A stretch of 64,000 nucleotides of DNA from assembly GCA_015486615.1 (NCBI GenBank), contig WFRI01000090.1:1608-65607 (forward strand). Reading direction: 5' to 3'. Under the pieces are notes generated by a model that worked only from the letters and a program-made list of their open reading frames with translations, searched no databases and was not told the origin of the DNA. This stretch comes from Candidatus Omnitrophota bacterium. Lineage in GTDB: Bacteria; Omnitrophota; Gorgyraeia; Duberdicusellales; Duberdicusellaceae. The translations under genes were made by a program, and so were the position numbers. Below are positions 18,412 to 62,478 of this stretch, piece after piece; position 1 is the stretch's first letter, and each line of letters starts with the position of its first letter.

Positions 18412-18453
18412 ATACTCTTTGTCTTTCTTCTTTCGCCTTAGATAAATGCTGAC

Positions 18454-18527
18454 TGGGCGCAAGAGGAGTCGAACCTCTGGCCTCAACGATGTCAACGTTG
18501 CGCTCTAACCAACTGAGCTATGCGCCC
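18454..18527 (-). tRNA. tRNA-Val (anticodon GAC)
   Basis: Hand-folded cloverleaf: acceptor GGGCGCA/TGCGCCC, D-arm GCTC-AGTTGGTTA-GAGC, anticodon loop TTGACAT, T-arm AGAGG-TTCGACT-CCTCT. No CCA is encoded. Confidence 0.8.
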
Positions 18528-24545: not shown

Positions 24546-24549
24546 AAAG

Positions 24550-24759
24550 TTATTTTAATTCGTCTATCCCTCCGGGATGAAACGGATGGCATTTCATTAT
24601 TCTTTTTAAACTAAGAATCAACCCTTTTACAAACCCGTATTTCTCAAAAGCCTGGCGGCTGTATTCTGAACAACTGGGATAAAAACGGCAGGAATGCGGC
24701 AAATAGGGCGAAATATATTTTTGGTAAAAGGCCAGAAAATACACTGCTAAATATTTCAT
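24550..24759 (-). CDS. yidD: Membrane protein insertion efficiency factor YidD
   Basis: [22 protein letters not shown] signature; 69 aa. Confidence 0.9.
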
Positions 24760-24896
24760 TAAACCGAGAGTTTTTTTCTGCCTTTTTTCCTGCGCCGGTT
24801 AAGAATTGCCCGGCCGGTTTTAGTCTGCATTCGTTTTCTAAATCCGTGTTTGTGCTTGCCTTTTAATTTTGTAGGAGTAGTATACCCTTTTTTCAT
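24759..24896 (-). CDS. rpmH: 50S ribosomal protein L34
   Basis: Hand-translated [45 protein letters not shown]. It is missing from the ORF track at 45 aa. Its stop shares one base with the yidD ATG. Confidence 0.85.
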
Positions 24897-25052
24897 AGCA
24901 AAAAGATTTTAGCCAAAGACTACCGAAGTGTCAAGGGTTATTACCAAAAATTTTGTTGCATTCGCTTCCGCCTGAGTTATAATTAAGTCTTAGTTGTGCC
25001 CTCTTTTTACTGTTTTTTCTTTTCCTGTTAATAAAAAGGTACTGCAAAGGTT

Positions 25053-26375
25053 ATGAATCTTTGGGAAAATATATTAAATCAATTAAGGCCCCATATCGGC
25101 AGCACTGCTTTAGAAACATGGTTTGCCCCGATTAAACTAAAAACCGCGGGAAAGACATCTTTGATAGCAGAGGTTCCGGATAAGTTTTTTAAAGACTGGA
25201 TTGAAGAACACTACGGAAGCCTGTTAAAAAATATTCTTTCTTCTTTAGGATATGAACGGGATTCTTTGGTTTTAGAAATCAACCCTGGGCTTTTGCACAC
25301 AAAAACGCAAAGAGTTCTAAAGAAAATCGGCGCTCGATTTAAAAATCCGCCGGCCAATGTAGAACACACTAATTCCCGGTTTACTTTTGAAAACTTTGTT
25401 GTCGGCCCGTCTAACCGTATGGCTCATGCGGCAGCAGTAGCAGTATCCGAATCTCCGGGCAAAATCTACAATCCTTTGTTTATCTACGGCAATGTAGGCT
25501 TGGGCAAAACCCATTTAATGCAGGCAGTTGCCCATGCTGCAGCAAAAAGAGCCGAAGTAAAAATACAGTACATATCTTCAGAGAATTTTACCAATGAATT
25601 GATAAGCGCTATCCAGAAAAGAAGCACCCAAAAATTCCGGGAAAAATACCGCAATATAGACATTTTATTAATAGACGATATTCACTTTATTGCCGGAAAG
25701 GAATCTACTCAGGAAGAATTTTTTCATATGTTTAACGTGCTTTACGACAACCACAAACAAATTGTCCTCTCATCGGACCGGCCGCCTAAAGAAATCCAGC
25801 AATTGGAGGAAAGGTTAGTTTCGCGATTCTGCTGGGGGCTGATTGTAGACATTCAGCCGCCGCCGTTTGAAACCCGCATGGCAATTTTAAAAAAGAAAAT
25901 AGAAAAAGAAGTGGTGAAAGTAGATGATAATGTCTTGGCTTTTATTGCAGAAACTATTACCACAAATATTAGGGAATTAGAAGGCGCTCTAATAAGAGTC
26001 ATTGCCTACGGAGTAATAGAAAATAAACCTATTACTTTAGAAACAGCCCGCAATGTCTTAAAAGATATGGTCAAAGAACATACAGAAAAGATTGACACTA
26101 AACGGATTTTAAATAAAGTGAGCCTTTATTTTGGTGTTTCACCGGAAGAAATAAAATCAAAAAAACGCAGTAAAAATTTAGTCCTGCCCCGCCAGATTTC
26201 TATGTACCTTTTACGGGAATTAACTGATTTGTCTCTGCCGGAAATAGGAAATACTTTAGGTTCCAAACACCACACAACAATACTGTATGCGCATAAAAAA
26301 ATAAAGGAGGCATTAAAAAAGAATTTGCAGATGCAGAATGTTATTAACAGTATATTAAACGATATTCACAGTTAA
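25053..26375 (+). CDS. dnaA: Chromosomal replication initiator protein DnaA
   Basis: GNVGLGKTHLMQA Walker A, AAA+ sensor motifs, and a C-terminal DNA-binding domain. Confidence 0.95.
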   Translation: MNLWENILNQLRPHIGSTALETWFAPIKLKTAGKTSLIAEVPDKFFKDWIEEHYGSLLKNILSSLGYERDSLVLEINPGLLHTKTQRVLKKIGARFKNPPANVEHTNSRFTFENFVVGPSNRMAHAAAVAVSESPGKIYNPLFIYGNVGLGKTHLMQAVAHAAAKRAEVKIQYISSENFTNELISAIQKRSTQKFREKYRNIDILLIDDIHFIAGKESTQEEFFHMFNVLYDNHKQIVLSSDRPPKEIQQLEERLVSRFCWGLIVDIQPPPFETRMAILKKKIEKEVVKVDDNVLAFIAETITTNIRELEGALIRVIAYGVIENKPITLETARNVLKDMVKEHTEKIDTKRILNKVSLYFGVSPEEIKSKKRSKNLVLPRQISMYLLRELTDLSLPEIGNTLGSKHHTTILYAHKKIKEALKKNLQMQNVINSILNDIHS

Positions 26376-26382
26376 TATAAAA

Positions 26383-26391
26383 ATATCCACA
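26383..26391. promoter_or_regulatory. DnaA-box-like nonamer ATATCCACA in the AT-rich dnaA-dnaN spacer
   Basis: One mismatch to TTATCCACA; the surrounding 100 bp are very AT-rich (a candidate DUE/oriC segment). Confidence 0.35.
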
Positions 26392-26477
26392 GGTTGTTAT
26401 TATCAAAATATATTGATAAATAAAGAAACTTGGAAGTTTTACACAATATTCTAAACTCTTACTATTAAGGAGGCTAC

Positions 26478-27575
26478 ATGAAAATATTAATAAATAGAGA
26501 AGTATTAGAAGAGATGTTAGTTAGTTTGTCTGGAGGGGTCTCTACAAAGAATTTGCAGATACTTTCCTTTGTTTTAATTGAAGCATTAGATAAAAAAGTT
26601 CGTTTTACCGTTACCGACTTGGATATAACTATAACTCATACCAAAAATAGCAATATTCAAGAAAAAGGCAGTATTTGCGTGCCTTTTAAAAACATCGTTT
26701 CTATTGTAAAGTTTTTGCCCAACAGTGAAGTCGTTTTAGACGCACATGATAACAAACTGTGGATAAGGTGTGAAAGGTGTGAATATGTTTTGAATGGAGT
26801 TGGAAAGGAAAGTTTTCCTAAAATACCTCAAAGCAGAGAAAAACAGGCAGTAAAAATTTTGGCTGACGATTTAAGAGATATGGTTAATCTGACCAGTTTT
26901 TGTGTTCTTATGGGGGAGAGTAATTTTATGTTGAGTGGGGTTTTGTTTGAGTTTAACAAAGATGAGTTTAGTCTGGTTGCTACTGATGGAAAAAGGCTTG
27001 CTAAAGCCAGCCGAAAAATGGCTTCTGACCAGGCTGATTTGTCCGATAAAGTTGCTTTTATTCTGCCTTTGAAGACGGTTATGGAACTTAATCATAGCTT
27101 AAAAAAGCAGGAATATGTTTTTGTAGGGTTTGGTAAAAAGCAGGTTGAGTTTGATATGGGCGATATTTTAATTAATTCCCGGGTTATTGAAGGCGAGTTT
27201 CCGGATTACGAAAAATACATACCCCAGGAATCTGACAGCAAATTGTGTGTGGAAAAAGAAAATTTTTTGGCGGTTTTGCGCCGGGCTAATACTTTGAGCA
27301 CAGCTGATTATAAAGGTGTTAAGATTGAAATAAAGAAAGATTATTTAGTGATTTCTAAGTCCACTCCTGATTTGGGGGAGTATAGGGAAGATTTGGCAGG
27401 CGTGGAATATTCCGGCAGAGAAATTGTTTTGGGATTTAACCCTGAGTATTTAATTGATGTATTAAAAAATGCAAATCAGGCGAGGATTTGCCTGGATATT
27501 TACGGGCCTGAAAAACCTATAGTTTTACGCAGTGCGGGGTATTTGTATTTGGCTTTGCCTATGCGTTTAGACTAA
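26478..27575 (+). CDS. dnaN: DNA polymerase III beta sliding clamp
   Basis: 365 aa; three-domain beta-clamp pattern; lies downstream of dnaA. Confidence 0.9.
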   Translation: MKILINREVLEEMLVSLSGGVSTKNLQILSFVLIEALDKKVRFTVTDLDITITHTKNSNIQEKGSICVPFKNIVSIVKFLPNSEVVLDAHDNKLWIRCERCEYVLNGVGKESFPKIPQSREKQAVKILADDLRDMVNLTSFCVLMGESNFMLSGVLFEFNKDEFSLVATDGKRLAKASRKMASDQADLSDKVAFILPLKTVMELNHSLKKQEYVFVGFGKKQVEFDMGDILINSRVIEGEFPDYEKYIPQESDSKLCVEKENFLAVLRRANTLSTADYKGVKIEIKKDYLVISKSTPDLGEYREDLAGVEYSGREIVLGFNPEYLIDVLKNANQARICLDIYGPEKPIVLRSAGYLYLALPMRLD

Positions 27576-27579
27576 CTTT

Positions 27580-30193
<2,614 letters not shown>

Positions 30194-30198
30194 ATGTT

Positions 30199-32643
30199 AT
30201 GATTCAAAATAACAATTTACCCCAAAATATTGTCCCGCGGTATTTAGAAGAGGAGATGAAAGCCTCTTATATCACTTACGCTATGAGTGTAATTGTCGGA
30301 AGGGCTTTGCCGGATATTCGTGACGGCTTAAAGCCGGTGCATCGCAGGATTCTCTATGTAATGGACCAGTTGCATTTAAAGCATAACCAGCCGTTTAAAA
30401 AAAGTGCAAGGATTGTTGGTGAGTGCTTAGGTAAATACCATCCTCACGGAGACAGCGCGGTATACGATGCCTTGGTGCGTATGGCGCAGGAATTTTCTTT
30501 AAGGTATCCTTTGATAGACGGTCAGGGAAATTTTGGTTCCATAGACGGTGATTCTCCTGCTGCTATGCGTTATACAGAAGCCCGCTTAGCGTATATTGCC
30601 GAGACAATGCTTGCGGATTTAGACAAAGATACTGTAGATTTTGTCCCTAATTTTGACAATTCTCTAAAGGAGCCAGTTGTTTTGCCGGCAGTCCTGCCCA
30701 ATCTTTTAATTAATGGTGCATCGGGAATTGCCGTGGGGATGGCTACAAACATTCCCCCGCATAATTTAGGCGAGATCTGCGATGCTATTTGTTATGTAGT
30801 TGACAATCCTGAATGCCCGATTAAAGACTTGAAAAAATTCATCAAAGGCCCGGATTTTCCCACTGCCGGGGTTATTTGCGGGAAAAAAGAAATTCTGCGT
30901 TATTTTGAAGAGGGCCGCGGCAGGCTGACTGTGCGGGCTAAGGCTGTAATTGAGCAGGATAAAACCCGCAGTTATATTGTTATTACCCAGCTGCCCTATC
31001 AAGTTAATAAGGCTAATCTTTTGGAAACCATAGCCAATCTTATCAGCAGTAAAAAGATAGAAGGGGTTGCGGATTTAAGAGACGAGTCTGACCGGGATGG
31101 ACTAAGGATAGTTATTGATTTAAAACGCGATTCCCAGCCGAAGGTTATATTAAACCAGTTGTATAAACATACTCAGATGGAAATAACTTTTGGCGTGATA
31201 CTTCTGTCTTTAGTGAACAACAAACCAAGGGTGCTGAATTTAAAGCAAATGCTGCAGTATTACATCCAGCACCGCAAGGAAATTATTGTCCGGCGCACCC
31301 GATTTGAGCTGGAAAAAGCCCGCAGAAGGGCGCATATTTTAGAAGGTTTAAAAATTGCCTTAAAGCATTTGGACGAAGTTATAAACACGATAAAGAAATC
31401 CAAGTCTCCGCAGGACGCCAAGGAAAAGCTGATGAGGAAATTTAATCTTTCCGATGTGCAGGCTCAGGCTATTCTGGAAATGCAGTTGCAGCGCCTGACG
31501 GCTTTGGAGAGAGATAAAATAGACGCCGAATACAAAGAACTTCTTAAAAGGATTGCTTACCTGCAGGCTGTTTTAGAATCGGTAAAAAAGCAGAATGAAT
31601 TAATTAAAGAAGAAGTGAGGAATTTAAAGGAAAAATTTGGGGACGAACGCCGCACAGAAATTGTTTCCGAAAAGGAGGAAATAGAAATTGAAGATTTGGT
31701 TGTGGAGGAAAAAGTGGTAATTACTATTTCCGGCCAGGGCTATATTAAACGCCAGCCTTTGTCTTCTTACAGAAAGCAGGCCAGAGGGGGAAGGGGAATT
31801 ACTGCTATGGCAACCAAAGAGGAAGATTTTGTAGAACATTTGTTTGTTTGTTCCAGCAAAGACACGTTGCTTATTTTTACCAATAAAGGCAAGGTTTTTG
31901 GGGTCAAAGCCTATGAAGTTCCTGCAGGCAGCAGGGTGTCTAAAGGCAGAGCCATTGCTAATTTTCTGCATTTTTCTTCCGGAGAAAGGGTGGCGTCTGT
32001 CTTATCTGTCAAAGAATTTACTCCCGGACAGTTTGTGGTTATGACTACAGCCCGGGGTTTAATTAAACGGGTGGATTTGGACGCTTTTTCCAATATAAGA
32101 AGGACCGGGATTATCGGCATTACCTTAGACAGGGAAGATACTTTAATTGGTGTGGCTGGCGGAGAAAGTGAAAACGACGAGGTGCTTTTAAGCGCATCTT
32201 CAGGGAAATGTATCCGCTTCAAAGTTAAAGATGTGCGGTTGATGGGCAGGCAGGCTATGGGAGTAAAAGGCATCGCTATCGGCAAAAAAGATGCGGTATT
32301 GGGAATGGTTTTGATTAATTCTTATATCAGCCGCCAGGATTTTTCCGTTCTTGCTGTAACTGAAAAAGGGTTTGCTAAAAGGACTAAAATAAAGGAATAC
32401 CGCACTCAGTCCCGGGCAGGCAAAGGCGTTATTGGGATTAAAGTTTCCGGCAAAATAGGCAGTGTGGCGGCAGTAGTTTTGGTTACTGAGAACGACGAGG
32501 TGGTGGTTATTACACAAAAAGGTATTCTTATCCGCTGCAAAGCTAATGCTATTCGGCCTTCGGGCAGGAATACTCAGGGAGTGCGGCTTATTAAATTGGG
32601 CAAAGACGATTTAGTCGCTACTGCGGCTCGGGTTGTTGAATAG
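30199..32643 (+). CDS. gyrA: DNA gyrase subunit A
   Basis: 814 aa; catalytic Tyr region (AAMRYTE), GyrA box and beta-pinwheel repeats. Confidence 0.95.
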
Positions 32644-33142
32644 GATGCAGGGTAATCAAGATAGAGAAAATTCCTCTTTTGGCCGGCAGAAAGGTTCCGG
32701 CCGGCCTTTTATCCAGCCGTCAGACCTGCCTGGCAGGTTAAAAGCAATCAGTATAGTAAATATCGTCTTAGGACTTTTGGGAATAGCATCTTCTTTGGGG
32801 GTTTTTATGGACCCCAAAATAAAAAAAGGCTTGCTGAAACAGTTGAGCGGGCATTTTTCCCGGCCACAAGTCCCTGCTGAAAAAATTATTTTAGCCTTGG
32901 CCTGGACAAATTTAATTTTCTTTGGCCTGCTTTTGGTTGTAGCCGCGGGCATATTATTAAAAAGAGAAATTTTTCGCAAAATCGGGGTGTATTACGCTTT
33001 AATCGCAGCCGTGCTTACCGGATTTGGAATTTCCAGTGCGGTTTCGTCTGTGGACAGGGTTTTTAATCTGTTGTTTTTCATCTGGCTGGTATATATGTTT
33101 TTTACTTTTACCCGTTCGGATTTAAACAAAGTGTTTAAGTAG
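32633..33142 (+). CDS. Hypothetical small membrane protein (about 4 TM)
   Basis: Hydrophobic segments and a compact ORF between gyrA and glmS; no recognised motif. Confidence 0.3.
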
Positions 33143-37357: not shown

Positions 37358-38830
37358 ATGAAACCAGCCAGCCGGCAGATTGTTAAATTAATTCGCAGAG
37401 AGTATAGGAAGAATCCGGGTTTTGGCTGCAGGCTTTTGTCTAAAACCGTTCAGGAAAAATACGGACTCTCAATTTCCAAAAGTTCTGTCCAGCGCATTCT
37501 AACAAAGCAGGGAGTTTCTTTATCCGCGGGCAGAAAGGAGAAAATACTTTTGCTTTCCCGCAGGGACAAACAATACGCGGGGTTAATTTTTCTAAAGGCT
37601 GCCTGGGATTTAATCGGAATAGACAATATATGCCGGCAGGCCCGCAGGCGGTTTGGAGTGAATGCCATACGTGCAAAAAAAACAATTCTATACTATTTTT
37701 TAACAGATATTGCCGGGATTAGAGATTTTGACAATCCGGATCTCCAGGATATTCTCAGGGAATTTTTTGCCTTGCCTTCAAAATCAAGATTGCCGGGCAA
37801 GCCCCCGGGTACAGATATAGAAATAGGTATTCCGCATTATGCGATTGAGCCAATGCCGGCTTACAAAATCACTTTTGCCAATGGCTTTTATTTTTACCTG
37901 GATCCTTATTTTAAAAGTTTGTGGGGCAGTTATGACAGTATTCCCTGGCAATATGTTTGTTTTTCCCCGGCAGTGCAAACATACTGGCAGCAGATATTTA
38001 CCCGCGGCAGTTTGCCTGTGCTGAGCCTGCCTTGTTTTGGTAATGTTTCTGCTCTTGTTTTCCGCGTTTTGGAAGGTTTTAGCAAAAGCAGGATTTTAAA
38101 AATAGAAGGTATATCCCGGGACGGCAGAGTTGTAGAAGAAATTAAACCTTTGGGCTTAATTTCAGAGATATCTATAGGTTATCATCCCAGACAGATTCAG
38201 ACAGAGCATAAGAGGAAATTAAGCACTGCAAGCCTGCGGTTTGCCGGCAGGCAGATAAAAGTTGTTTTATTCACAGCAAAAATATCTTTAAACAAATCTT
38301 ATTTAGAACTGCCCCTTGTTGATATTTTTGACAGAGAGGGCAGCCTTTTGTGGAAGGTGATTTTTTCCGGTTCGGCCATATTAAAAGATTTACCTTCAGC
38401 CGTCAAAGAGTATCTATTGCGGCATATAAATCCGCAGTCAGGGTTAAATGCCCACTGGAAGGTTTTAGAAAGAGCCAGTTTTAGCGAAGACTCTATTGGT
38501 TTCGTGCGGCAGTATTTCAAGATTAAACAACAGCGCTTTATGTCTGTTCCCAGCCTGATTAGGTTATTAGAACTTGTCTTGATTAATAAATTCGGCCTGA
38601 CCGGTGCAGACTTAAAAACAATCCTGGTTTTGCCCGGCGATGTATTTAGATTGGGAGGCTTTTACAAAAAAATTGTTTTTCCTGAGAGCAGCAAAGTAAG
38701 GCCGGTTATAGAGATTTTTAACCAAATGCCGATTTTTTACTGTGGCAAAAGAGTGATTTTATCCCTTGGCCGGCAGGCGTTTCAGGAAAACGTTTTCATG
38801 GCCAAAAAGGAAAAGGCACATAAGGCTTGA
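37358..38830 (+). CDS. Hypothetical protein with an N-terminal helix-turn-helix-like segment
   Basis: IVKLIRREYRKNPGFGCRLLSKTVQEKYGLSISKSSVQRILTKQG looks like a transposase or regulator HTH. The remaining roughly 430 aa have no recognised motif. The start is trimmed because the upstream frame overlaps the NSS transporter. Confidence 0.3.
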   Translation: MKPASRQIVKLIRREYRKNPGFGCRLLSKTVQEKYGLSISKSSVQRILTKQGVSLSAGRKEKILLLSRRDKQYAGLIFLKAAWDLIGIDNICRQARRRFGVNAIRAKKTILYYFLTDIAGIRDFDNPDLQDILREFFALPSKSRLPGKPPGTDIEIGIPHYAIEPMPAYKITFANGFYFYLDPYFKSLWGSYDSIPWQYVCFSPAVQTYWQQIFTRGSLPVLSLPCFGNVSALVFRVLEGFSKSRILKIEGISRDGRVVEEIKPLGLISEISIGYHPRQIQTEHKRKLSTASLRFAGRQIKVVLFTAKISLNKSYLELPLVDIFDREGSLLWKVIFSGSAILKDLPSAVKEYLLRHINPQSGLNAHWKVLERASFSEDSIGFVRQYFKIKQQRFMSVPSLIRLLELVLINKFGLTGADLKTILVLPGDVFRLGGFYKKIVFPESSKVRPVIEIFNQMPIFYCGKRVILSLGRQAFQENVFMAKKEKAHKA

Positions 38831-38929
38831 AACTCTGCATACGAATGTGATATAGTTTATATGGATTAATTGTCTAAGGGAGGCAGATAATAATCAACAC
38901 AAACACGGCGTGTTGGGAAAGCTAAGAAT

Positions 38930-39085
38930 ATGTGCAGGAATATTAAAAGCCAGGTGTTTTTAGAGTATGTTGTAATATTTGCCGCTTTTATTTTGGCTGT
39001 GCTGGCGGCAGGCAATTTTTTAGGGAAGGTTCATAAAGGGTTTAATACCGGCTTTAACGAAGCAGTAGAGGAAATCTTATGGTAG
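38930..39085 (+). CDS. Flp-family prepilin, 51 aa (candidate major pilin)
   Basis: MCRNIKSQVFLEYVVIFAAFILAVLAAGNFLGKVHKGF: a class-III-signal-like N-terminus (SQVFLEY) plus a hydrophobic helix. It is missing from the ORF track. Its stop overlaps the next paralog's start. Confidence 0.5.
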   Translation: MCRNIKSQVFLEYVVIFAAFILAVLAAGNFLGKVHKGFNTGFNEAVEEILW

Positions 39086-39432
39086 GGGAAAAAGCCCAAA
39101 GTTTTTTAGAATACGCTTTTTTGTGGGCGATAATTGCTGTTGCTTTGTCAGGAATGTGGATATATATGCGCAACAGTGTTACGGCTAAGGCTGAAGATAT
39201 GCGCCAGGATGTTGATTTGAGTTTTCGCAGTCATGAGGAAACCACGCCTTTTGGGTATGAGCATGCTGACGCCAATGTTGTTAATTGGCAGGAAGTTGTT
39301 AATAACGTGAATAGAAATATACTCAGCCGGTATGAGGGCAGGATTGATTCTCTGCCGCCGGGTATAGATATAGATAGTTTTCATAACATAATGGACAATA
39401 GTATTTCGGTTGATTCCGAAGATAAGAATTAA
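39079..39432 (+). CDS. Flp-family prepilin paralog (117 aa) with a C-terminal extension
   Basis: MVGEKAQSFLEYAFLWAIIAVALSG..YMRNSVTAKAEDM core shared with the other paralogs. Confidence 0.7.
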   Translation: MVGEKAQSFLEYAFLWAIIAVALSGMWIYMRNSVTAKAEDMRQDVDLSFRSHEETTPFGYEHADANVVNWQEVVNNVNRNILSRYEGRIDSLPPGIDIDSFHNIMDNSISVDSEDKN

Positions 39433-39454
39433 GAAGTTAAGAGGCGGACTAATT

Positions 39455-39841
39455 ATGGCAGACAGAAAAGCCCAGAGTTTTTTGGAGTATGTAGCAGTGG
39501 TTATGGTTACTAGCCTTGCTTTGTCGGCAATGAGTCTTTATTTTAACCGGGCAATAAATTCTGTTTCCAGAGAGCAGTTAGAAATGCGCAGCGAGAATTT
39601 AAGGGACAAATCCAATGTAGTCCCTGCTATTTCGCTTCCCCGGCAAGATAATAATACCGGTGATATAGACAGCCTAAAGCAGAGAGTAGATGAGTTGTTT
39701 AGGGTGGTTGACAATAACAGGAAACAGGTTGAGGCGGAATTCGCCCCGGAAAATCTTGTGAATTTACAAACGGACCAGGCAGGCGCTACGGAAAACTTTT
39801 TTAAAACAACCGGCAGCGCCGTTGTTAACAATGAGGACTAA
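39455..39841 (+). CDS. Flp-family prepilin paralog (about 128 aa)
   Basis: MADRKAQSFLEYVAVVMVTSLALSAMSLYFNRAINS; SD GAGGCGG lies upstream of this ATG. The track's longer N-terminus is probably spurious. Confidence 0.7.
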   Translation: MADRKAQSFLEYVAVVMVTSLALSAMSLYFNRAINSVSREQLEMRSENLRDKSNVVPAISLPRQDNNTGDIDSLKQRVDELFRVVDNNRKQVEAEFAPENLVNLQTDQAGATENFFKTTGSAVVNNED

Positions 39842-39856
39842 CGATAGGAGGTGTTT

Positions 39857-40066
39857 ATGTTTTTGCCTAAAAAAGCCCAGAGCACATTGGAATACACTTT
39901 GATTGTAGCAGCTATTGTAGCGGCAGTAATCGCTGCAGCCGGACATATTCAAACCAAGGTTACTAACAGTATAAATTCAGCAGGCGATACTTTGGAAAAT
40001 GCGGCAAATCATATTAGCGATTTGCTTGATGATATCCCACAGTCGGGGTCGGCACAACAGCAGTAG
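39857..40066 (+). CDS. Flp-family prepilin paralog (about 69 aa)
   Basis: MFLPKKAQSTLEYTLIVAAIVAAVIAAAGHIQTKV; SD AGGAGG lies 5 nt upstream. Confidence 0.75.
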   Translation: MFLPKKAQSTLEYTLIVAAIVAAVIAAAGHIQTKVTNSINSAGDTLENAANHISDLLDDIPQSGSAQQQ

Positions 40067-40106
40067 AATTTAGAGGACGTTGAAATAAAATAAAGGAGGA
40101 GAGAGT

Positions 40107-40448
40107 ATGTTGATAAAAATGAAAAAAGCCCAGTCAACCGCAGAGTATGCTATCCTGTTTTCCGTTGTTTTGGCGGCTTTGGCCGGTATGCAGGTTTATA
40201 TGAAAAGGTCGTTTAACGCCAAGTTAAAAGACTCAGCGGATTTGCTTACTAAAGTGACAGGTTCAGTAGGAGGCGTTCAATTAGGCACGACCAACCAATA
40301 CGAGCCATACTATACTAACCAGCATATTAATACTACCTATACTCAGGATGATACAACTAAGAAATACCAAAACTATGCTGAAAATTATGAGCATACTCAG
40401 CAATATAACGCGAGTTCGTCCTATAGGCAGGAGGGTGTTTCGGAATAA
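40107..40448 (+). CDS. Flp-family prepilin paralog (113 aa) with a Thr/Tyr/Gln/Asn-rich tail
   Basis: MLIKMKKAQSTAEYAILFSVVLAALAGMQVYMKRSFNAKLKDSAD; tail TNQYEPYYTNQHINTTYTQDDTTKKYQNY. Confidence 0.75.
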   Translation: MLIKMKKAQSTAEYAILFSVVLAALAGMQVYMKRSFNAKLKDSADLLTKVTGSVGGVQLGTTNQYEPYYTNQHINTTYTQDDTTKKYQNYAENYEHTQQYNASSSYRQEGVSE

Positions 40449-40482
40449 CCTATTTATGGAGTTGTATTCAAAAGGGGGTTTT

Positions 40483-40797
40483 ATGTTCATAAAAATTAAG
40501 AAGGCACAAAGCACATTAGAGTATGCCGGGCTTATAGCGATTGTGATTGCTTCTGTTATTACTATGCAAAGTTTTGTGCGCAACCATATCCAGGGCAAAA
40601 TTAAGAGCAGTGCAGACAATATCAGCGATACAAGTTTTGACCCCGGAAGAACGGATACGGAGCAGAGCACAAATTTACTGGGCGACAAGACAGAATACAG
40701 TTCAGTTGTAAACGGCGTATCGGAAACAAACGCTGCGGACTATCGCTACAAAGAAGAGACCACAGTTAATACTACTTACGACTCCAGTAAGTTTTAA
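40483..40797 (+). CDS. Flp-family prepilin paralog (about 104 aa)
   Basis: MFIKIKKAQSTLEYAGLIAIVIASVITMQSFVRNHIQGKIKSSADN; polar tail. Confidence 0.7.
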   Translation: MFIKIKKAQSTLEYAGLIAIVIASVITMQSFVRNHIQGKIKSSADNISDTSFDPGRTDTEQSTNLLGDKTEYSSVVNGVSETNAADYRYKEETTVNTTYDSSKF

Positions 40798-40832
40798 GAA
40801 AAGCAGTTTCACCAGGCACCGCAGGAGTTAAA

Positions 40833-41120
40833 ATGAAGAATGCTCAGACAAGCATAGAATATGGAGGATTATGGATACTGCTGGCAGGAGTGTTGATTAC
40901 TATGGCCGTTTTTGTGCGCGGTCATATTCAGGCCAGGCAGAAGCAGGAAGGTGAGAAAATCTCCCAATTTTTATATATTCCCGGAAAGACTACAATTAAC
41001 CAGCATACAACAACTATTAGTAATACCAGCAGTCTCTCGGATGATATCCACAGTGAATCTAATTCAAAGGTTGATACAACGAGCTCTTTGGATATGACGA
41101 CGGATGTTAATCCTAAATAG
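40833..41120 (+). CDS. Flp-family prepilin paralog (95 aa)
   Basis: MKNAQTSIEYGGLWILLAGVLITMAVFVRGHIQARQK; Thr/Ser-rich tail. Confidence 0.7.
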   Translation: MKNAQTSIEYGGLWILLAGVLITMAVFVRGHIQARQKQEGEKISQFLYIPGKTTINQHTTTISNTSSLSDDIHSESNSKVDTTSSLDMTTDVNPK

Positions 41121-41138
41121 AAAATAGAATAGGAGGCT

Positions 41139-41675
41139 TTGATGAAAAGGGCTCAGAGTTTAATTGACTATGGGATAATAGTAGGTGTAGCCGCAATAGC
41201 CTTGTCGGCAATGTCAGGGTATATGCAGAGAAGTTTGCAGGCGAAGACAAAAGACCTTGCAGATGTTTTTATTACCAGTAAGCAGAGAGTTGCAGTTAAT
41301 AAAAAAATGGTTTATAACAAGGGCGGGGCAGATGAGCAGGAATTGGCGCCTGCGAACATGTCCGTGTCTGAAACATCTCAGGACGATAGTATATTGGAGA
41401 ATGCCGGAAATCACCGGCATACAGTGAATACGAACAGCCATACCTCCGGAGCCAGTATCTCTCCCAACGAGGACCCGGACAAGGATATAAATACTGTGGA
41501 ACTGCTGGAAAACATTAAATCCGTTCAGAATGCGCAGGCTCAGACTGCTTCTGATGATTTTGCGGATTCCAGCCAGGGCGAGTCTGCGCAGGATAAGGTG
41601 AAAGGCGATTTTTATGCCAATGTCCAGGATAGGGACCAGAATTATATTCGTCCTAATCCTAATAGCCAGGAATGA
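41139..41675 (+). CDS. Flp-family prepilin paralog (178 aa) with a long polar acidic tail
   Basis: MMKRAQSLIDYGIIVGVAAIALSAMSGYMQRSLQAKTKDLADVF. Confidence 0.7.
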   Translation: MMKRAQSLIDYGIIVGVAAIALSAMSGYMQRSLQAKTKDLADVFITSKQRVAVNKKMVYNKGGADEQELAPANMSVSETSQDDSILENAGNHRHTVNTNSHTSGASISPNEDPDKDINTVELLENIKSVQNAQAQTASDDFADSSQGESAQDKVKGDFYANVQDRDQNYIRPNPNSQE

Positions 41676-42388
41676 GGCGGACGGTGGATATTTTAGGTAA
41701 TAAGAATAATGGATATATGTTTAGTAAGAAAAAAGCGCAGGCCGCTGTAGAAACCGCGATATTTTCGGTTATACTAATTACGCTGTTTGCTGGTGTGGTA
41801 AATTACGCGGAAGAGATGAATTATGCCCAGATGGGAGCAATGGAAGCATTCCGCAGGGGGTTAAGTTATGCTGATACAAATATTGGTGCTGTTTCTTATT
41901 CTCTGACCCGTCACCGGCGCAGCGCAGACTTAAGTTCTCCCGGCCTTGATTCCGGCCAGAGTGCGGTTTCTTCAGGCTCCGCGAACATTTATTGGCTGGT
42001 AAGCGCTGGTAAGATGACGCCGACAGAAGGAAGTTTTGTGGTTGAGAATAGAGACGGCGCAGAAAAAAACATAAATATGGATGAGTTGTCTAACAAAAAA
42101 GACGTCCGGAAAATGCATTCTACAACACGTCAGGAAAACACTTCTGTTGATTCCCGTTTCCAGACAGGCCAAGGAAGCACTATTGACGAAACATCTTCTG
42201 CCTTTGTGCAGGACAATATTCAGGATTCTTATACGATAGACGGGGTGAAGAAAGACTATCCCGCGCATTTAGAAGTCCAAAAAGGCATATATGATACCCA
42301 GCACACTTTTTATGTATATAAGCCCGGCTTGGGCCAGGGGAAAATAATAAAGCGGCAGCGGCATTGGAATACCCGGGTGGAAAAGTAA
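41672..42388 (+). CDS. TadE/TadF-like pseudopilin
   Basis: MFSKKKAQAAVETAIFSVILITLFAGVVNYAEE resembles the TadE N-terminal (PF07811-like) pattern. The true start may be the internal ATG at 41717. Confidence 0.6.
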   Translation: MRRTVDILGNKNNGYMFSKKKAQAAVETAIFSVILITLFAGVVNYAEEMNYAQMGAMEAFRRGLSYADTNIGAVSYSLTRHRRSADLSSPGLDSGQSAVSSGSANIYWLVSAGKMTPTEGSFVVENRDGAEKNINMDELSNKKDVRKMHSTTRQENTSVDSRFQTGQGSTIDETSSAFVQDNIQDSYTIDGVKKDYPAHLEVQKGIYDTQHTFYVYKPGLGQGKIIKRQRHWNTRVEK

Positions 42389-42398
42389 AGAGGCGGAT

Positions 42399-42665
42399 AT
42401 GTTTTTAAGAAAAAAATTTGGCCAGGCAGTTTTAGAAGTTTGTGTGATGTTTACTTTAGTGGTTATGCTTATGGTTTTGATGTTGAGAATTTGGAATTGG
42501 ACAATAGTGCCTATTGTCCAGCGCCAAGTGAATTACAATAATACCAGAGTGATTGCCGGCGCGCCCATAGTAGGCAGTTCTTCCAATATCCGCGAGCCGG
42601 TTATTTGGCCGGTATATATTACCCGGCCTTTAGACAAAGATTATTTATTTAAAGGACAGAAATAA
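42399..42665 (+). CDS. TadE-like pseudopilin (88 aa)
   Basis: MFLRKKFGQAVLEVCVMFTLVVMLMVLML: a canonical G-x4-E-type Flp/TadE prepilin motif with Gly. Confidence 0.6.
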   Translation: MFLRKKFGQAVLEVCVMFTLVVMLMVLMLRIWNWTIVPIVQRQVNYNNTRVIAGAPIVGSSSNIREPVIWPVYITRPLDKDYLFKGQK

Positions 42666-44150
42666 ATGTTTAGAACATTTTCTGCTGCTAAAGCCGGGCG
42701 CAGGGGGCAATTGACCCCTTTTTTTATTGTCTTGATAACCGCCTTAGTTATTGCGGCTTTAGTCACCATTAATATCGGCAAAGTGGCTTTGAATAAGACT
42801 TATGTGGCCAATGCTTCTGACGCCGGTTCTTTGGCCGGGGCCTCGGTTATGGCTTCGGTTTTTAACAATATCGCAACAGCCAACAGTCAGATGAAGGTTG
42901 CTTACCAGGATTTTGTAACTACTACAGCCGTGCTTTATGCAGCCGCTTTAGCGGCTTTAATAGTAAGCCATAAAACATCTTTGGCTTCTTTATCTTCAGC
43001 GAAAGCCGCTGCTACAAAAGCTTGCAAAGCGCCTTGTGTGGCAGCAGGCATGGTGGCCACAGCGATAGGTTCGTTAGGGAAAGCCTCTGCGTCTATGGGT
43101 ATATTTATAACTACTTTAAAGTCCATAGGTATAGCAATTACCAGTTTTTCAGTTGCTCAATTGTTTCTCTACAATATTATCAGGAAAATGGCCGCTAAAG
43201 GCAGGAAAGACGCTATTAAACTTGCTTACCGGTATTTGTTTATTAACAGCGGAATAACCAGCCGGTTAAACTCCGGGCAAAGAGATAAGTTTTCTGACTG
43301 GCTGGACTCTTCAGATGTTTCCAACGTTACTTTTGACAAAGCCTCGGCTATGTTTGCGGAGTTTAACCCTTTAATATCCCATATTAAGCAAAGATTTCCG
43401 GTTGCAGGCTCGGGCAGGAGGTATCACTGGAAGGACGGCTGGGAAAAAAATCATATTGTCCAGGGTTTTGTCAAAATAAACAAGGTGGATAAATTTATTG
43501 TCCGGATTACAGCTTTGCCTTATCCTGCTCAAATAGCTTTGTTGATAGGAATGGGGAAAATTGCTTCTGATATTTTGGCGCAGTGGGTAGCAGTGGGCGA
43601 TGGATATGGTTTAGCTGATGATTCCTTAATCGTAGCCTGTGGTTGTGATGATTGTTGCCCTCATCCCGCCTGTTGTGCTTGTAGATCTGCTGCTTGTGCG
43701 GGTGCGGAAGAGGAGTTGGGCATAGATACAGCGGCCCATAGCGCGGCAAATGCGCAAATTATTCGTTTTTTATACCCTCTGCTAACTGAGTCCGGAGTAG
43801 GCCTTGCTCCTGCAGCCTCGCTGCGCAGTTCTTCGGGCTTTAACTTGTCTTGGGCCACAATAGTCTGGATAGACGATGTTGTTCATGACCGCGGTGTGTA
43901 TGTTTTGTCGTTTCAACTTCACCAGGGCAAAGATTTGGGGCTTTGGCAGGAAAAATATCCTGTGCCTTTAAGCTTCTCAGTTGCTGATTTCCGGGGCTCG
44001 GGCAGAATTTCGCCGCCGAAGTTAGGGTTTGACGCCCGGATTGTCCGCACAGATATATCGGGGAAAGGCGCCTTAAGCGCCAGCCAAAGGTTTCCTTTGA
44101 AGATTTTAAGAGGCAATCTAAAACAAAAGGTGCAGGGAGGTGGAAAATGA
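42666..44150 (+). CDS. TadG-like pilus-assembly protein (494 aa) with a Cys-rich insert
   Basis: The N-terminus (GQLTPFFIVLITALVIAALVTINIGKVALNKTYVANASDAGSLAGA) matches the TadE/G-like (PF13400-type) pattern. It contains a CGCDDCCPHPACCACRSAACAG cluster. Confidence 0.55.
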   Translation: MFRTFSAAKAGRRGQLTPFFIVLITALVIAALVTINIGKVALNKTYVANASDAGSLAGASVMASVFNNIATANSQMKVAYQDFVTTTAVLYAAALAALIVSHKTSLASLSSAKAAATKACKAPCVAAGMVATAIGSLGKASASMGIFITTLKSIGIAITSFSVAQLFLYNIIRKMAAKGRKDAIKLAYRYLFINSGITSRLNSGQRDKFSDWLDSSDVSNVTFDKASAMFAEFNPLISHIKQRFPVAGSGRRYHWKDGWEKNHIVQGFVKINKVDKFIVRITALPYPAQIALLIGMGKIASDILAQWVAVGDGYGLADDSLIVACGCDDCCPHPACCACRSAACAGAEEELGIDTAAHSAANAQIIRFLYPLLTESGVGLAPAASLRSSSGFNLSWATIVWIDDVVHDRGVYVLSFQLHQGKDLGLWQEKYPVPLSFSVADFRGSGRISPPKLGFDARIVRTDISGKGALSASQRFPLKILRGNLKQKVQGGGK

Positions 44151-45079
44151 AGCGGTATTTTTTATGCCTTACCATTTTTTTAATGTTTAACACGGCCGGT
44201 GCTTCGATGCTGGATGATTTAAAAAATGTATTTAACCCTAAATCTTTCCCTTTGCCGGAACAGACAAAGGTTTTGAGAAAAGCCCGAACCATGCAGACAG
44301 GAGACATAACTGTTACCAGCACTATTTATACCAGTTCTTTGACGCAGAAGCAGGTCAAAGAATTTTTCCTGAAACATCTTCCCGGATACGGCTGGCAGTA
44401 TGTGGATATTCGGTCTAAATTAAAGGGAGTACAGCAGGCGTTTCCTAACCAAAAAATGGAAAAAATGGAGAATTCTATAACAAATTCACTTGATACTCTT
44501 GGCTCACAGTTGTATTTTACCAATTCCCGGGGCAATAGTTTAACAATAATGTTTATGGACCGCGGGCAAAATCCCTCCGGGGTTGATTTTGTAGTGAGTT
44601 TTTCGCAGGGAAAATCTTTATCTTTTATCAACCAGGAGTTAAACGAAGTTTTTCCGGTTGAGCCGCGGAAAATATCCGGTGTTCCTTTATATCCCAATGC
44701 CCGGCAGGTATATTTTCAAAAAGGCGGCAGTTCTATAACTGCAGGCTATACTACCTCTGACAGCATAGAGACGGTAGCCGGATTTTATGTTGAAAAAATG
44801 CCTAATTACGGCTGGGAATATTCGGATTTAACCGGCAGGATGAATGCGGCTTTGGACAAAGAGGCATTGAAAAAAAGTCTGGCCGCTGCAGAAGAGGATA
44901 ATTCCGGAAGCTGCCCGTCTTGTCCCGGAAAAGGAATTTCATCTCAAGCCGCACAGTATATAGACAATATGCGGATGAAAAGCATAGTTTTTCAAAAGGG
45001 AAAATCTCTCTGTGTTGTTTCCTTGTCCGGCATTGCCGGCGGCGAGACTAACATAACTGTTTTTTACCGGAATCCGTAA
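44147..45079 (+). CDS. Secreted protein with a tandem-duplicated domain of about 130 aa (pilus locus accessory)
   Basis: Signal-peptide-like MKRYFLCLTIFLMFNTAGASM. The internal repeat has halves LPGYGWQYVDIRSKL and MPNYGWEYSDLTGRM. Its start overlaps the tadG-like stop. Confidence 0.4.
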   Translation: MKRYFLCLTIFLMFNTAGASMLDDLKNVFNPKSFPLPEQTKVLRKARTMQTGDITVTSTIYTSSLTQKQVKEFFLKHLPGYGWQYVDIRSKLKGVQQAFPNQKMEKMENSITNSLDTLGSQLYFTNSRGNSLTIMFMDRGQNPSGVDFVVSFSQGKSLSFINQELNEVFPVEPRKISGVPLYPNARQVYFQKGGSSITAGYTTSDSIETVAGFYVEKMPNYGWEYSDLTGRMNAALDKEALKKSLAAAEEDNSGSCPSCPGKGISSQAAQYIDNMRMKSIVFQKGKSLCVVSLSGIAGGETNITVFYRNP

Positions 45080-45430: not shown

Positions 45431-46276
45431 ATGGTTGGATTAATGTTATTATGCCTTTTTGGTCTGGTTTTTCTGACGGCTTACTTTGGAGTTCCCTGGA
45501 TTGTTAAGACCTGGAAAGAGGCTGAGCAGGAAAGGGCTGCGGAAGACAAGGCGGATTTGGAGAATATGTTTATTTTTGGCCGGCAGAAAATTTTAGCCCT
45601 GCTTTATATTATTATCCCTGTTGTCTTAGGAGCAGCATTATATTTTGTTTATAAGAACACCTGGTTTATTGTGGTTGGGATTATTGCCGGGTTTGCTGCG
45701 CCTTTATCTGCTATACGGGTAAAAAAATCCCTGCGCAGGAAGGCTTTTCATAATCAGTTGATAGATGCTTTGCTTATAATGAATAGTTGTTTGAAAGGAG
45801 GCTTGAGTTTAATCCAGGCGTTTGAAGTTTTAGCCGAAGAAATGCCTTCGCCTATGCATGATGAGATAACTTTGCTTTTAAGAGAGCACAAGTTGGGCGT
45901 TCCTATAGAAGAGGCATTAGAGAGGTTTAACAGCCGTATGTATTCAGAAGAATTAGGCCTTATTGTGAGTGCAATTTTAGTTGCCAGGGAAACAGGCGGG
46001 GATTTGACCCGGGTTTTTTCGCGGCTAATCACTACTATCCGGGACAGGTTCAAATTAAAAGAGATGATAAATACCCTTAGCCTGCAAGGCCGGCTTCAGG
46101 GTATTATTATGGCTGTTATTCCTTTTCTTTTTGCCTGGTTTGTCTTCAGGACCAATCCGCACCATTTTGATATAATGTTTGAAACCGACATAGGCAGAAT
46201 TCTCTTAGGAGTGGCAGTTTTTCTGAATATTTTAGGGGCATTTTTAATCAGGAAGTTTAGTATAATAAAAGCATAA
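45431..46276 (+). CDS. tadB: TadB-like pilus assembly membrane protein (T2SSF domain)
   Basis: 281 aa; T2SSF-type region LIDALLIMNSCLKGGLSLIQAFEVLAEEMPSP flanked by TM segments. Confidence 0.75.
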   Translation: MVGLMLLCLFGLVFLTAYFGVPWIVKTWKEAEQERAAEDKADLENMFIFGRQKILALLYIIIPVVLGAALYFVYKNTWFIVVGIIAGFAAPLSAIRVKKSLRRKAFHNQLIDALLIMNSCLKGGLSLIQAFEVLAEEMPSPMHDEITLLLREHKLGVPIEEALERFNSRMYSEELGLIVSAILVARETGGDLTRVFSRLITTIRDRFKLKEMINTLSLQGRLQGIIMAVIPFLFAWFVFRTNPHHFDIMFETDIGRILLGVAVFLNILGAFLIRKFSIIKA

Positions 46277-46280
46277 AATT

Positions 46281-47147
46281 ATGGAAACCCTTTTGTTGTT
46301 TTTAATATCTGCTGCCGCCATATACTTTGTTTTGTTAAGTATGGGCGGGAAAGAAGAGGATGTCTCTTTGGCCGAGAGGATAGCCCCCGGCGGCGGGCCG
46401 CCGGAGAAAAAGAAAGAATCTCTGCTTTCAGTTTTTGCGCCGGTTAACGAAGTAATTCTTAAAAAGTTAAGGCTTAAGCCTTATTATCAGCAGAGGCTTT
46501 ACTTTTTGAGGAAGAGGTATAACTGGACTCCTGCGGAATTCTTTGCTTTGAAGTTTTTAAGTGCAGCAGGTTTTGTTGCCATATCTTTAACTTTAGGCTT
46601 AAGAATCGGACCGTTGTTTTGGCTGGGATTTGTTATTTTCTTTTTTCTGCCGGATTTTTGGCTGAATGCCCAGGTTAAGAAAAACAAAGAAGCCATTAGG
46701 CGCTGGCTTCCTGAAACTGTGGATCTTTTATATCTTTGTGTAAGCGCCGGCCTGGATTTTCTTTCGGCTTTAAAATGGATTCTGCGTAAAAGCCGCACCA
46801 ATCCTATGCTTGAGGAATTAAAAGTTGTTTTAGATGAGATTAATGTCGGCAAAGGCAGGGTTCAAACATTGAGAGATATGAGTAAACGTATAGGCATACC
46901 AGATGTATCTTCTTTTGTGCAGGGGATTATTCAGGCAGAGAGAATGGGGACACCTGTTGCCGAAGCGTTTACGATTATTTCCGAAGATTCCCGTTACCGC
47001 CGTCTGCAGAGAGGCGAGCGTCAGGCGTATAAATCGCCTTTGAAAATATTAATTCCGCTTATTTTCTGTATCCTGCCCACGGTTTTAATAGTAGTTGCCG
47101 GGCCTATTTTTATTCGTTTTATGCAGGGAGGATTTCCGAAATTTTAA
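46281..47147 (+). CDS. tadC: TadC-like pilus assembly membrane protein (T2SSF domain)
   Basis: 288 aa; VDLLYLCVSAGLDFLSALKWI...MGTPVAEAF T2SSF pattern; C-terminal TM. Confidence 0.75.
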   Translation: METLLLFLISAAAIYFVLLSMGGKEEDVSLAERIAPGGGPPEKKKESLLSVFAPVNEVILKKLRLKPYYQQRLYFLRKRYNWTPAEFFALKFLSAAGFVAISLTLGLRIGPLFWLGFVIFFFLPDFWLNAQVKKNKEAIRRWLPETVDLLYLCVSAGLDFLSALKWILRKSRTNPMLEELKVVLDEINVGKGRVQTLRDMSKRIGIPDVSSFVQGIIQAERMGTPVAEAFTIISEDSRYRRLQRGERQAYKSPLKILIPLIFCILPTVLIVVAGPIFIRFMQGGFPKF

Positions 47148-50011: not shown

Positions 50012-50339
50012 GCAGGGTGTAAAAGACAATAAAAAACTTGCATTATTGCCAATGTATGTATAATAAATACCGGAGTGTTTTTTGAGTTTTTGGATTTTGG
50101 GGAGTTTTTGACTAACAAGCATATTTCCGCTTTTCGCACTTGCCCTGCTCTGCTGTATGTCCTGCGAATTCCCCCGATGTTGAGATTAAATACTTAAATG
50201 CATTTAAAAACATATTGTTGAATATATCTGCGTCTTGCGGGGAAGTTGTAAGTTTTTTAGAAAGGAGGAATTGTATGAGTGGTTGATGTGTAATATGGGG
50301 AGAATTTTAGCGATAACAATATTCAGAAAGGAAAGAAAA

Positions 50340-50654
50340 ATGGAAGAAAAAAACAAAGTTTATGTGGGCAATTTAGAGTATGGTGTAACTGAAGAAAGTT
50401 TAAAAGAAGCGTTTGAGTCTAAAGGTATCCAGATCAGCGAGGCAAAAATTATCAAAGATAAATTTACCGGCAAGTCTAAAGGCTTTGGTTTTGTGGAAGT
50501 GCCTTCGGAAGAGGATATTCAAAAAGCCATAGATGGTTTGGACGGCCAGGATTTAAACGGCCGTAAATTAAAGGTCAGCAAGGCACGCAGGCCCAGGTCA
50601 AATTTTGACCGGCCTAACAGAGGCATGCATTCTGGTAACAGGTTTGGCTATTAA
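50340..50654 (+). CDS. RRM-type RNA-binding protein with a Gly/Arg tail
   Basis: RNP2 VYVGNL and RNP1 KGFGFVEV motifs; the start is taken at MEEKNKVYVGNL. Confidence 0.8.
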   Translation: MEEKNKVYVGNLEYGVTEESLKEAFESKGIQISEAKIIKDKFTGKSKGFGFVEVPSEEDIQKAIDGLDGQDLNGRKLKVSKARRPRSNFDRPNRGMHSGNRFGY

Positions 50655-61869: not shown

Positions 61870-62478
61870 ATGGAGTTTAATAACCTTTTGCAGGTCCTGC
61901 AAAAAAACAGGTTTTATCTTTTTTCCCTGGACGAACTCAGGGTTTTTTATCCTAATGAATCAAGTGCCAACCTGAAGAAGGAATTGTATCGCTGGAGAAG
62001 CAAAGGCTTGATTGTGCGCCTGAAAAAAGGGCTTTACGAACTGGCATTTCCTCAGGATATGGCTATTCCTGATATGGTAATTGCCAATAAACTTTATGAG
62101 CCTTCTTATGTTTCGCTTGAGACGGCGTTGTCTTATTACAGTATAATTCCTGAAGTTGCTATGGCGGTTACTTCAATTACCACTAAGCCCACGCGGCGAT
62201 TTAAAAATAAACATGGATTATTCCTTTATCATACGGTAAAATATGCCTCCTTTACGGGGTATTACTTAGAAAAGATGAGCGGTTTTGAAGTAATGCTGGC
62301 TGAGCCAGAGAAAGCAGCAGCAGATTATCTTTATTTTAAGGAGCGGCGCGGTGAAAATGTTGATTTTGAAGCAGAGCGTTTTGATAAAAAGATAATTTCT
62401 AAAATGAATAAAAAGAAATTAGAAAAATATGCCAGGGGATTTAAGTTAAACTTAGAAAGTTTCTATGCTTACTTATGA
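61870..62478 (+). CDS. abiEi: AbiEi-family antitoxin / transcriptional regulator (type IV toxin-antitoxin)
   Basis: YRWRSKGLIVRLKKGLYEL...YEPSYVSLETALSYYSIIPE matches the AbiEi_4 pattern. Overlaps the downstream AbiEii gene. Confidence 0.7.
   Translation: MEFNNLLQVLQKNRFYLFSLDELRVFYPNESSANLKKELYRWRSKGLIVRLKKGLYELAFPQDMAIPDMVIANKLYEPSYVSLETALSYYSIIPEVAMAVTSITTKPTRRFKNKHGLFLYHTVKYASFTGYYLEKMSGFEVMLAEPEKAAADYLYFKERRGENVDFEAERFDKKIISKMNKKKLEKYARGFKLNLESFYAYL

Follow-up and report, generated by a model that had tools for sequence, protein, structure and literature searches.

Alanine, glycine and serine interchange at the predicted −1 position of Tad-type prepilins in a Candidatus Omnitrophota bacterium

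Introduction

Pilins of the Flp/Fap family (PF04964) are matured by the peptidases TadV, CpaA or FppA at a G/XXXXEY motif in which the Gly at position −1 is nearly fixed, while the archaeal class III signal peptide pilins (PF04021, DUF361 or UPF0333), among them the Epd pilins of Methanococcus maripaludis, belong with EppA, an archaeal pilin peptidase that requires a Gln at +1 (PMC4390842; PMC3875500; PMC4187195). Here we describe an array of prepilin-like genes from a Candidatus Omnitrophota bacterium that resembles both. It lies in a stretch of 64,000 nucleotides (assembly GCA_015486615.1, contig WFRI01000090.1, positions 1,608 to 65,607), referred to as the window, to which all positions below refer. 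From the sequence of this stretch it had been proposed that the pilins carry a conserved Ala instead of Gly at the predicted −1 position, and that this implies a prepilin peptidase with altered specificity or a different processing enzyme.

In other type IV systems the −1 position is described in less strict terms. For bacteria, PilFind uses the motif [GAS]-x4-[DE], and PilD is said to be an enzyme that 'cleaves at a glycine or alanine' (PMC3244431). The FlaFind motif for archaea, [KRDE][GA][ALIFQMVED][ILMVTAS], accommodates the KAQS of the present pilins (PMC4307647). A review of mutagenesis data concludes that Gly is strongly preferred at −1, with Ala as 'an acceptable substitute' (PMC2913515). 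The Tad system has been proposed to descend from an Epd-like archaeal pilus (PMC6668835), and the Tad systems of the Omnitrophota have been tied to host contact in a proposed predatory or parasitic lifestyle (PMC10066038); the main text of the latter study contains none of the words 'prepilin', 'peptidase' and 'TadV' and refers to pilins only a few times, in connection with conductive pili. We consider it about 80% probable that the array encodes paralogous type IV (Tad or type IVc) prepilins and pseudopilins, and that an ordinary A24 peptidase encoded elsewhere tolerates a small residue at −1.

Results

The prepilin array

Eleven open reading frames (ORFs) on the plus strand, ten within 38930–42665 and one at 45091 (P1 to P11), fall into one common register according to their translations and alignments. 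They share an N-terminus composed of a basic leader of 4–8 residues, one small residue, Gln, three variable residues, Glu-Tyr and a hydrophobic stretch of about 20 residues. The class III layout, a short charged leader with the site ahead of the hydrophobic segment, is present in all 11, and the −1 residue is always Gly, Ala or Ser: Ala in nine (P2–P9 and P11), Ser in P1 and Gly in P10. Gln occupies +1 in 11/11 ORFs. Position +5 is Glu or Asp in 10/11 (Asp in P8; P11 has Gly), and the Tyr at +6 is replaced by Thr in P9 and by Val in P10; E-Y at +5/+6 is thus found in 7/11, or in 8/11 if the D-Y of P8 is counted. The 11 codons at −1 are GCC (five times), GCT (twice), GCA, GCG, AGC and GGC. A DNA pattern encoding K-A-Q-xxx-E-Y occurs five times in the window, where shuffled sequences led us to expect 0.01 occurrences, and each pilin gene is preceded by a good Shine–Dalgarno sequence.

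The Ala that had been noticed at −1 is therefore confirmed, with seven of the nine Ala-type genes inside 39079–41180; outside this interval are the Ala-type P9 and P11, the Ser-type P1 and the Gly-type P10. No register places a Gly at −1. The alternative alignment that would do so was ruled out, most leaders being devoid of any Gly (e.g. MKKAQ, MKNAQ or MKRAQ). It had also been stated that only a TadE-like gene at 42399 carries the canonical Gly. The gene at 42399 (P10) is indeed the sole one with Gly, but it has no Pfam match; the (weak) TadE match belongs to P9 at 41717, which has Ala. The view of these proteins as Flp-like prepilins of a Tad locus, with a predicted cut before Q(S/T)xxEY, is supported by gene context and conservation.

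The array begins with P1 (38930–39085, 51 amino acids (aa), IK-S-QVFLEY) and P2 (39079–39432, 117 aa, EK-A-QSFLEY; identical to the public protein P0002). These two genes overlap by 7 nucleotides (nt), which suggests translational coupling; the spacing of most later pilin genes is about 15–40 nt, and 22 nt or less in four cases. P3 (39455–39841, 128 aa, RK-A-QSFLEY), identified by translation and alignment, is followed by P4 (39857–40066, 69 aa, KK-A-QSTLEY), the shortest Flp-sized member, which has a strong upstream Shine–Dalgarno sequence and is a candidate for the major pilin. P5 (40107–40448, 113 aa, KK-A-QSTAEY) and P7 (40833–41120, 95 aa, KN-A-QTSIEY, with the four-residue leader MKNA), both seen in the translations and alignments, flank P6 (40483–40797, 104 aa, KK-A-QSTLEY), a member of a large orthologous subfamily. 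P8 (41142–41675, 177 aa, KR-A-QSLIDY) is identical to the public protein P0021. Next come the TadE-like pseudopilin P9 (41717–42388, 223 aa, KK-A-QAAVET), whose TadE match (E 0.14) is better in its ortholog of the related Omnitrophota locus L035 (E 0.0045), and the small pseudopilin-like P10 (42399–42665, 88 aa, KF-G-QAVLEV). P11 (45091–45297, 68 aa, RK-A-QTFLGY; identical to public P0004) stands apart from the others, just upstream of tadB. Since the Glu at +5 usually matters in pilus assembly, the Gly that P11 has there may indicate a different role for this protein.

Comparison with known prepilin families

The window pilins resemble the Flp/Fap pilins in having Glu at +5 and Tyr at +6 ahead of a hydrophobic helix, and their genes likewise occur as tandem paralogs beside TadE-, TadG-, TadB- and TadC-like genes, joined in relatives by RcpA, RcpC, TadZ and TadA. 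The Tad character of the locus is apparent from two single-domain T2SSF genes (tadB and tadC, 45431–47147) and a TadA/CpaF ATPase, and from pseudopilins of the TadE/TadF/TadG type (PF13400 above its cutoff; P9 weakly TadE, its L035 ortholog more strongly). The complete G/XXXXEY motif with Gly at −1 is absent, since the sole Gly, that of P10, is followed by E-V at +5/+6. Unlike the near-fixed Gly of Flp/Fap, the −1 residue here is Ala, Gly or Ser; the leaders are also much shorter, and the Gln at +1 is invariant. P1, P4 and P11 are of Flp size (51–69 aa), whereas the others have 88–223 aa; most members have 95–180 aa and variable C-terminal regions, several of them with long low-complexity tails that are unusual for Flp. 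In an AF2 model of P6, residues 11–48 form a confident N-terminal helix; the model also suggests a small beta region, at low confidence (pLDDT <50), which would differ from the all-alpha Flp fold.

In Pfam, the best match of the window pilins is Class_IIIsignal (PF04021), at 21.5 bits (P1) to 22.7 bits (P4) against a cutoff of 23.7, so just short of the archaeal family; P4 reaches only 18.2 bits for Flp_Fap (cutoff 32.2). By these scores the pilins are nearer to the archaeal class III signal peptide pilins than to the Flp family. Among 103 homologs, weak matches at E ≤ 0.01 were obtained to Class_IIIsignal for 32 and to Flp_Fap for 15. There is no NCBIfam model for these pilins, and a search of PDB sequences with the family profile gave no match. 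An exhaustive profile search returned 2709 cluster representatives at E ≤ 1e-3, and public labels of relatives vary between 'Flp pilus assembly pilin Flp' and 'UPF0333 family' (both from JGI) and 'hypothetical protein'. The array represents a new, largely unannotated family of a known kind of prepilin.

With the archaeal PF04021 pilins the window proteins share a short basic leader (5–13 residues in archaea), and with the Epd pilins of M. maripaludis the conserved Gln and Glu residues at +1 and +5, respectively (PMC3875500; PMC4390842). They indeed show the EppA-substrate pattern of a short leader, a Gln at +1 and a Glu at +5, the Gln being found in 11/11 ORFs and in 149/149 scored homologs. 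The likeness would fit the proposed descent of Tad pili from an Epd-like archaeal system (PMC6668835). The short leader, the obligatory Gln, the closer match to UPF0333 and loci devoid of TadV could accordingly be read to mean that these pilins have kept an archaeal Epd-type class III signal peptide, which would be cut by an EppA-like or otherwise unusual peptidase requiring Gln at +1, or that the lineage stands near the proposed archaea-to-bacteria transfer of Tad. If true, the origin of Tad pili and the determinants of peptidase specificity would become directly open to testing. It differs from the archaeal case in that the host is a bacterium, the Tad locus type contains a secretin and no EppA-like gene was identified; moreover, the leaders of the M. 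maripaludis Epd pilins end in Gly, and these pilins have no Tyr at +6 (PMC3875500). We regard this reading as unlikely compared with that of ordinary Tad prepilins. The window sites also fit the general type IV motifs of PilFind and FlaFind, with the exception of P11, whose Gly at +5 is outside [DE]. Compared with the model systems, only the high share of Ala is unusual.

Variation at −1 among relatives

A scan for related loci, with one genome per species, returned 78. In 77 of them and in the window, we recorded the −1 residue of every pilin-like N-terminus; contigs from the genome of the window itself were excluded. The 561 sites comprise Ala 350, Gly 163, Ser 39, Thr 6 and others 3, so that Ala accounts for 62%. 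Ala-type and Gly-type paralogs occur together in 65/78 loci, and orthologs can differ at −1 while being otherwise very similar (94% identity for an A/G pair, 88% for G/A and 87% for S/A). In the P6 subfamily, collected with a full-length profile (122 sequences), −1 is Gly in 66 and Ala in 56, giving a Gly consensus, while the adjoining QSTLEY (+1 to +6) varies at +2 alone, which is Ser in 120/122. The slot of P10 in relatives has Ala 13, Ser 10 and Gly 9, and that of P9 Ala 13, Gly 12, Ser 3 and Thr 2; every orthologous slot toggles at −1, these two included.

An N-terminal profile gave, among its 150 best matches, Ala 121, Gly 19, Ser 8 and Thr 1 at −1, with Gln at +1 in all 149 scored. This profile favours Ala, hence the separate census of all pilin-like N-termini. 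Likewise, the seed pattern of the locus search contained Ala, and the −1 counts thus rest on all paralogs of each locus and on full-length profile searches, that with P6 yielding the Gly majority.

The residues that can be reached from an Ala codon by one nucleotide change are very unequally represented: Val, Asp and Glu occur at 0/561 sites and Pro at 1/561, while Gly, Ser and rarely Thr are seen. The spectrum at −1 looks like the signature of selection on side-chain size. The idea of a conserved Ala as a family trait is not borne out by these data; the survey of homologs reveals Ala, Gly and Ser interchanging across related loci.

The finding also bears on the proposal that the peptidase of this lineage has shifted in specificity toward Ala, co-evolving with its substrates. 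Ala is after all the commonest −1 residue (9/11 in the window), model enzymes prefer Gly (PMC2913515), and no TadV is linked to the pilin loci of the 78 relatives. An enzyme of this kind would nonetheless have to act in cells in which Ala-type, Gly-type and also Ser-type paralogs coexist in one array and must all be processed; near-identical orthologs swap Ala, Gly and Ser, the P6 subfamily even has a Gly majority, and both Ala and Ser at −1 are already within the published motifs. A shifted specificity is therefore quite unlikely, and the conclusion of the original prediction that the Ala calls for an altered or different peptidase lacks support. Since a cell has to process sites of all three kinds, a single enzyme tolerating small residues is the simplest reading.

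Search for the prepilin peptidase

In agreement with what had been noted before, the window contains no A24 peptidase as judged from Pfam, motif and membrane-topology scans. Peptidase_A24 gave no Pfam match among the 60 principal window ORFs, all those of at least 200 aa included; the GxGDxK motif is absent from all six frames, and no window ORF with several transmembrane (TM) segments resembles an A24 peptidase. No peptidase was found in a further 5.8 kb of the same scaffold beyond the window start, and no TadV/CpaA or other A24 gene in the 78 related loci (about 1.1 Mb), including a Pfam analysis of the complete locus L035. A relaxed scan for [GAS]x[GA]D or GxHyD combined with a TM filter yielded no A24 candidate in 83 loci. 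The lack of such a gene in the window and the 78 relatives indicates that the peptidase is unlinked to the Tad locus in this phylum; its gene may lie elsewhere, or a PilD may serve this and another pilus system alike.

Three window proteins were considered and set aside. The protein with a helix-turn-helix (HTH)-like N-terminus encoded at 37550–38830 was rejected as a protease on account of its soluble nature. A 310-aa protein of the locus and its paralogs in L035 are of the secreted or lipoprotein type and have no polytopic membrane domains. A small ORF downstream of gyrA (32633–33142, plus strand) has four predicted TM segments, no Pfam match and no GxGD, and is not a peptidase candidate.

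Unlinked processing has a precedent in Myxococcus, where the enzyme that matures KilP is probably encoded beyond the kil clusters and could be PilD; the same source calls prepilin peptidases promiscuous, so that pilins belonging to unlinked systems may be among their substrates (PMC12075869). PF01478 (Peptidase_A24) and K02654 (PilD) are entered for at least two Omnitrophota genomes in a supplementary table of PMC10066038; these entries show only that the family exists in the phylum.

A missing linked peptidase could also mean that there is no processing at all, the leaders of 4–8 residues being retained on N-terminally anchored membrane or surface proteins. Leaders as short as MKNA or MKRA and the long low-complexity C-terminal tails of several members would be compatible with this. 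The pattern [KR][KR]-[AGS]-Q-x3-E-Y is however strictly conserved in thousands of homologs, and conservation of this kind is to be expected only from a recognised site; the genes form part of Tad assembly loci, and leaders of 3–4 residues are cut by archaeal PibD (PMC4307647), all of which makes retention of the leader very improbable. Removal of the leader by an enzyme of another class, such as signal peptidase I acting after Ala, for which the superficial likeness of −1 Ala to the AxA rule and the absence of a nearby A24 gene might be invoked, is scarcely credible given a hydrophobic segment after the predicted cut (the class III and not the class I layout), Lys or Arg rather than a small residue at −3, and the invariant Gln at +1 and conserved Glu at +5 that typify substrates of prepilin peptidases and pilus assembly (PMC3875500; PMC4187195).

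Discussion

The explanation that we favour remains that of Tad prepilins processed by an ordinary, unlinked A24 peptidase. That these are Tad prepilins cut before the Gln is well supported by context and conservation, and we infer the cleavage from sequence. The prepilins would insert into the inner membrane, where an A24 aspartyl peptidase (TadV/CpaA-, PilD- or EppA-like) encoded elsewhere would cut between the small residue and the Gln on the cytoplasmic face; assembly of the mature subunits would then fall to the TadB/TadC platform together with the TadA-type ATPase. In the peptidase, the −1 pocket would need a small side chain only, and Ala would serve as well as Gly. As the pocket needs no more than this, Ala at −1 would be neutral, ordinary variation and no marker of new enzymology. 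The enzyme would have to cut Ala-type sites efficiently, which is within the known range of A24 peptidases.

Several points weigh against this explanation. The window pilins are under the gathering thresholds of both Flp_Fap and Class_IIIsignal. An A24 gene was found neither in the window and its 5.8-kb extension nor in the 78 related loci, and cleavage is a prediction for every member of the family. Finally, the Ala majority (62%) contrasts with the strong preference for Gly seen in mutagenesis, and the Omnitrophota enzyme may be more tolerant of Ala than the model enzymes are.

The family is of some consequence for annotation. With its 2709 representatives in Omnitrophota and related metagenomes it escapes the thresholds of Flp_Fap and Class_IIIsignal, and annotation rules requiring a Gly at −1 would lose about 70% of its members. 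Recognising large and variable pilin arrays in the Omnitrophota should also help in reading the predatory or parasitic lifestyle proposed for them (PMC10066038).

Organization of the locus and neighbouring genes

The window represents a bacterial chromosomal origin region with a Tad-type pilus locus near the origin. The cumulative GC skew has its minimum and sign change at about 24–26 kb; yidC and parA/parB are encoded on the minus strand, and the plus strand carries dnaA, dnaN, gyrB and gyrA (23082–32643). The 0.5-kb spacer between yidC and dnaA (24546–25052) is likely to be oriC. The locus with identical proteins is also present on an 80-kb metagenomic scaffold and in the metagenome-assembled genome GCA_027007805.1; the matching contig has gene calls for P1 and for the 426-aa HTH-like protein. 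Titles of the related loci name Candidatus Omnitrophota, Omnitrophica or Candidatus Gygaella in 49/78 cases and uncultured Planctomycetia or Planctomycetales in 23/78, and individual records name Dehalococcoidia, Elusimicrobia or Eubacteriales. The non-Omnitrophota titles of these TPA records (L007, L014, L015, L020 and others) may reflect coarse or mistaken taxonomic assignment.

In most relatives the locus begins with a lipoprotein gene, RcpC, the RcpA secretin, a TadZ::TadA fusion, a second ATPase and the HTH protein, and continues with the pilin array, a TadE-like, a P10-like and a TadG-like gene, an unknown gene, a pilin, TadB and TadC. In the window the Tad locus is split and incomplete, while in most relatives the parts are contiguous with the pilin array. 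The TadA/CpaF-type secretion ATPase (17338–18495, minus strand; T2SSE 178.9 bits; best NCBIfam match TIGR03819, the TadA family, at 261 bits, which is below its cutoff) lies 21 kb from the pilin locus, across the origin on the other replichore; by synteny, relatives carry the TadA-type ATPase immediately before the HTH gene and the pilin array. Pfam scans detected no RcpC/CpaB, RcpA/CpaC secretin or TadZ/CpaE (as in TadZ::TadA) in the 64-kb window; related Omnitrophota loci, L035 among them, do have these components. In L035 the RcpA-type secretin (L035:1260–2864) bears a C-terminal TonB_C domain, and a 721-aa protein that joins a ParA/MinD-like (TadZ-type) domain to a T2SSE ATPase (L035:2920–5085) is followed by a second, stand-alone T2SSE ATPase.

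Upstream of the array, on the plus strand, the HTH-like gene (37550–38830) encodes a protein of about 426 aa with weak HTH_Tnp_Tc3_2 and HTH_32 matches that belongs to no curated family. In 36 loci, three of which are contigs of the window's own genome, a homolog is encoded between the ATPase gene and the array, and the protein may be a locus-specific regulator. A promoter-like site on the same strand (38827–38856; TTGAAA-18-TATAGT with an extended TG), a pattern match from a consensus scan, precedes the first pilin gene by about 75 nt and may be the operon promoter.

Directly downstream of the array and also on the plus strand follow the TadG-like gene (42666–44150, 494 aa; PF13400 Tad 29.6 bits, cutoff 22.3), the gene for the conserved 310-aa secreted or lipoprotein-like protein (44147–45079), P11, and the genes for the TadB-like (45431–46276; T2SSF 71.4 bits) and TadC-like (46281–47147; T2SSF 52.2 bits) inner-membrane platform proteins; a direct database query with TadB gave no exact match. 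The 310-aa protein has no Pfam match above threshold and its homologs take the same position in 17 loci; it sits between the TadG-like gene and tadB, and L035 has up to three tandem paralogs at this place (L035:14780–17237).

Two further observations concern the distal part of the window. The plus-strand gene at 50235–50654 encodes a bacterial protein with a eukaryote-type RNA recognition motif (RRM_1, 80 bits). An AbiEi antitoxin and AbiEii nucleotidyltransferase toxin pair at 61870–63277, also on the plus strand, represents a type IV toxin-antitoxin or abortive-infection module.

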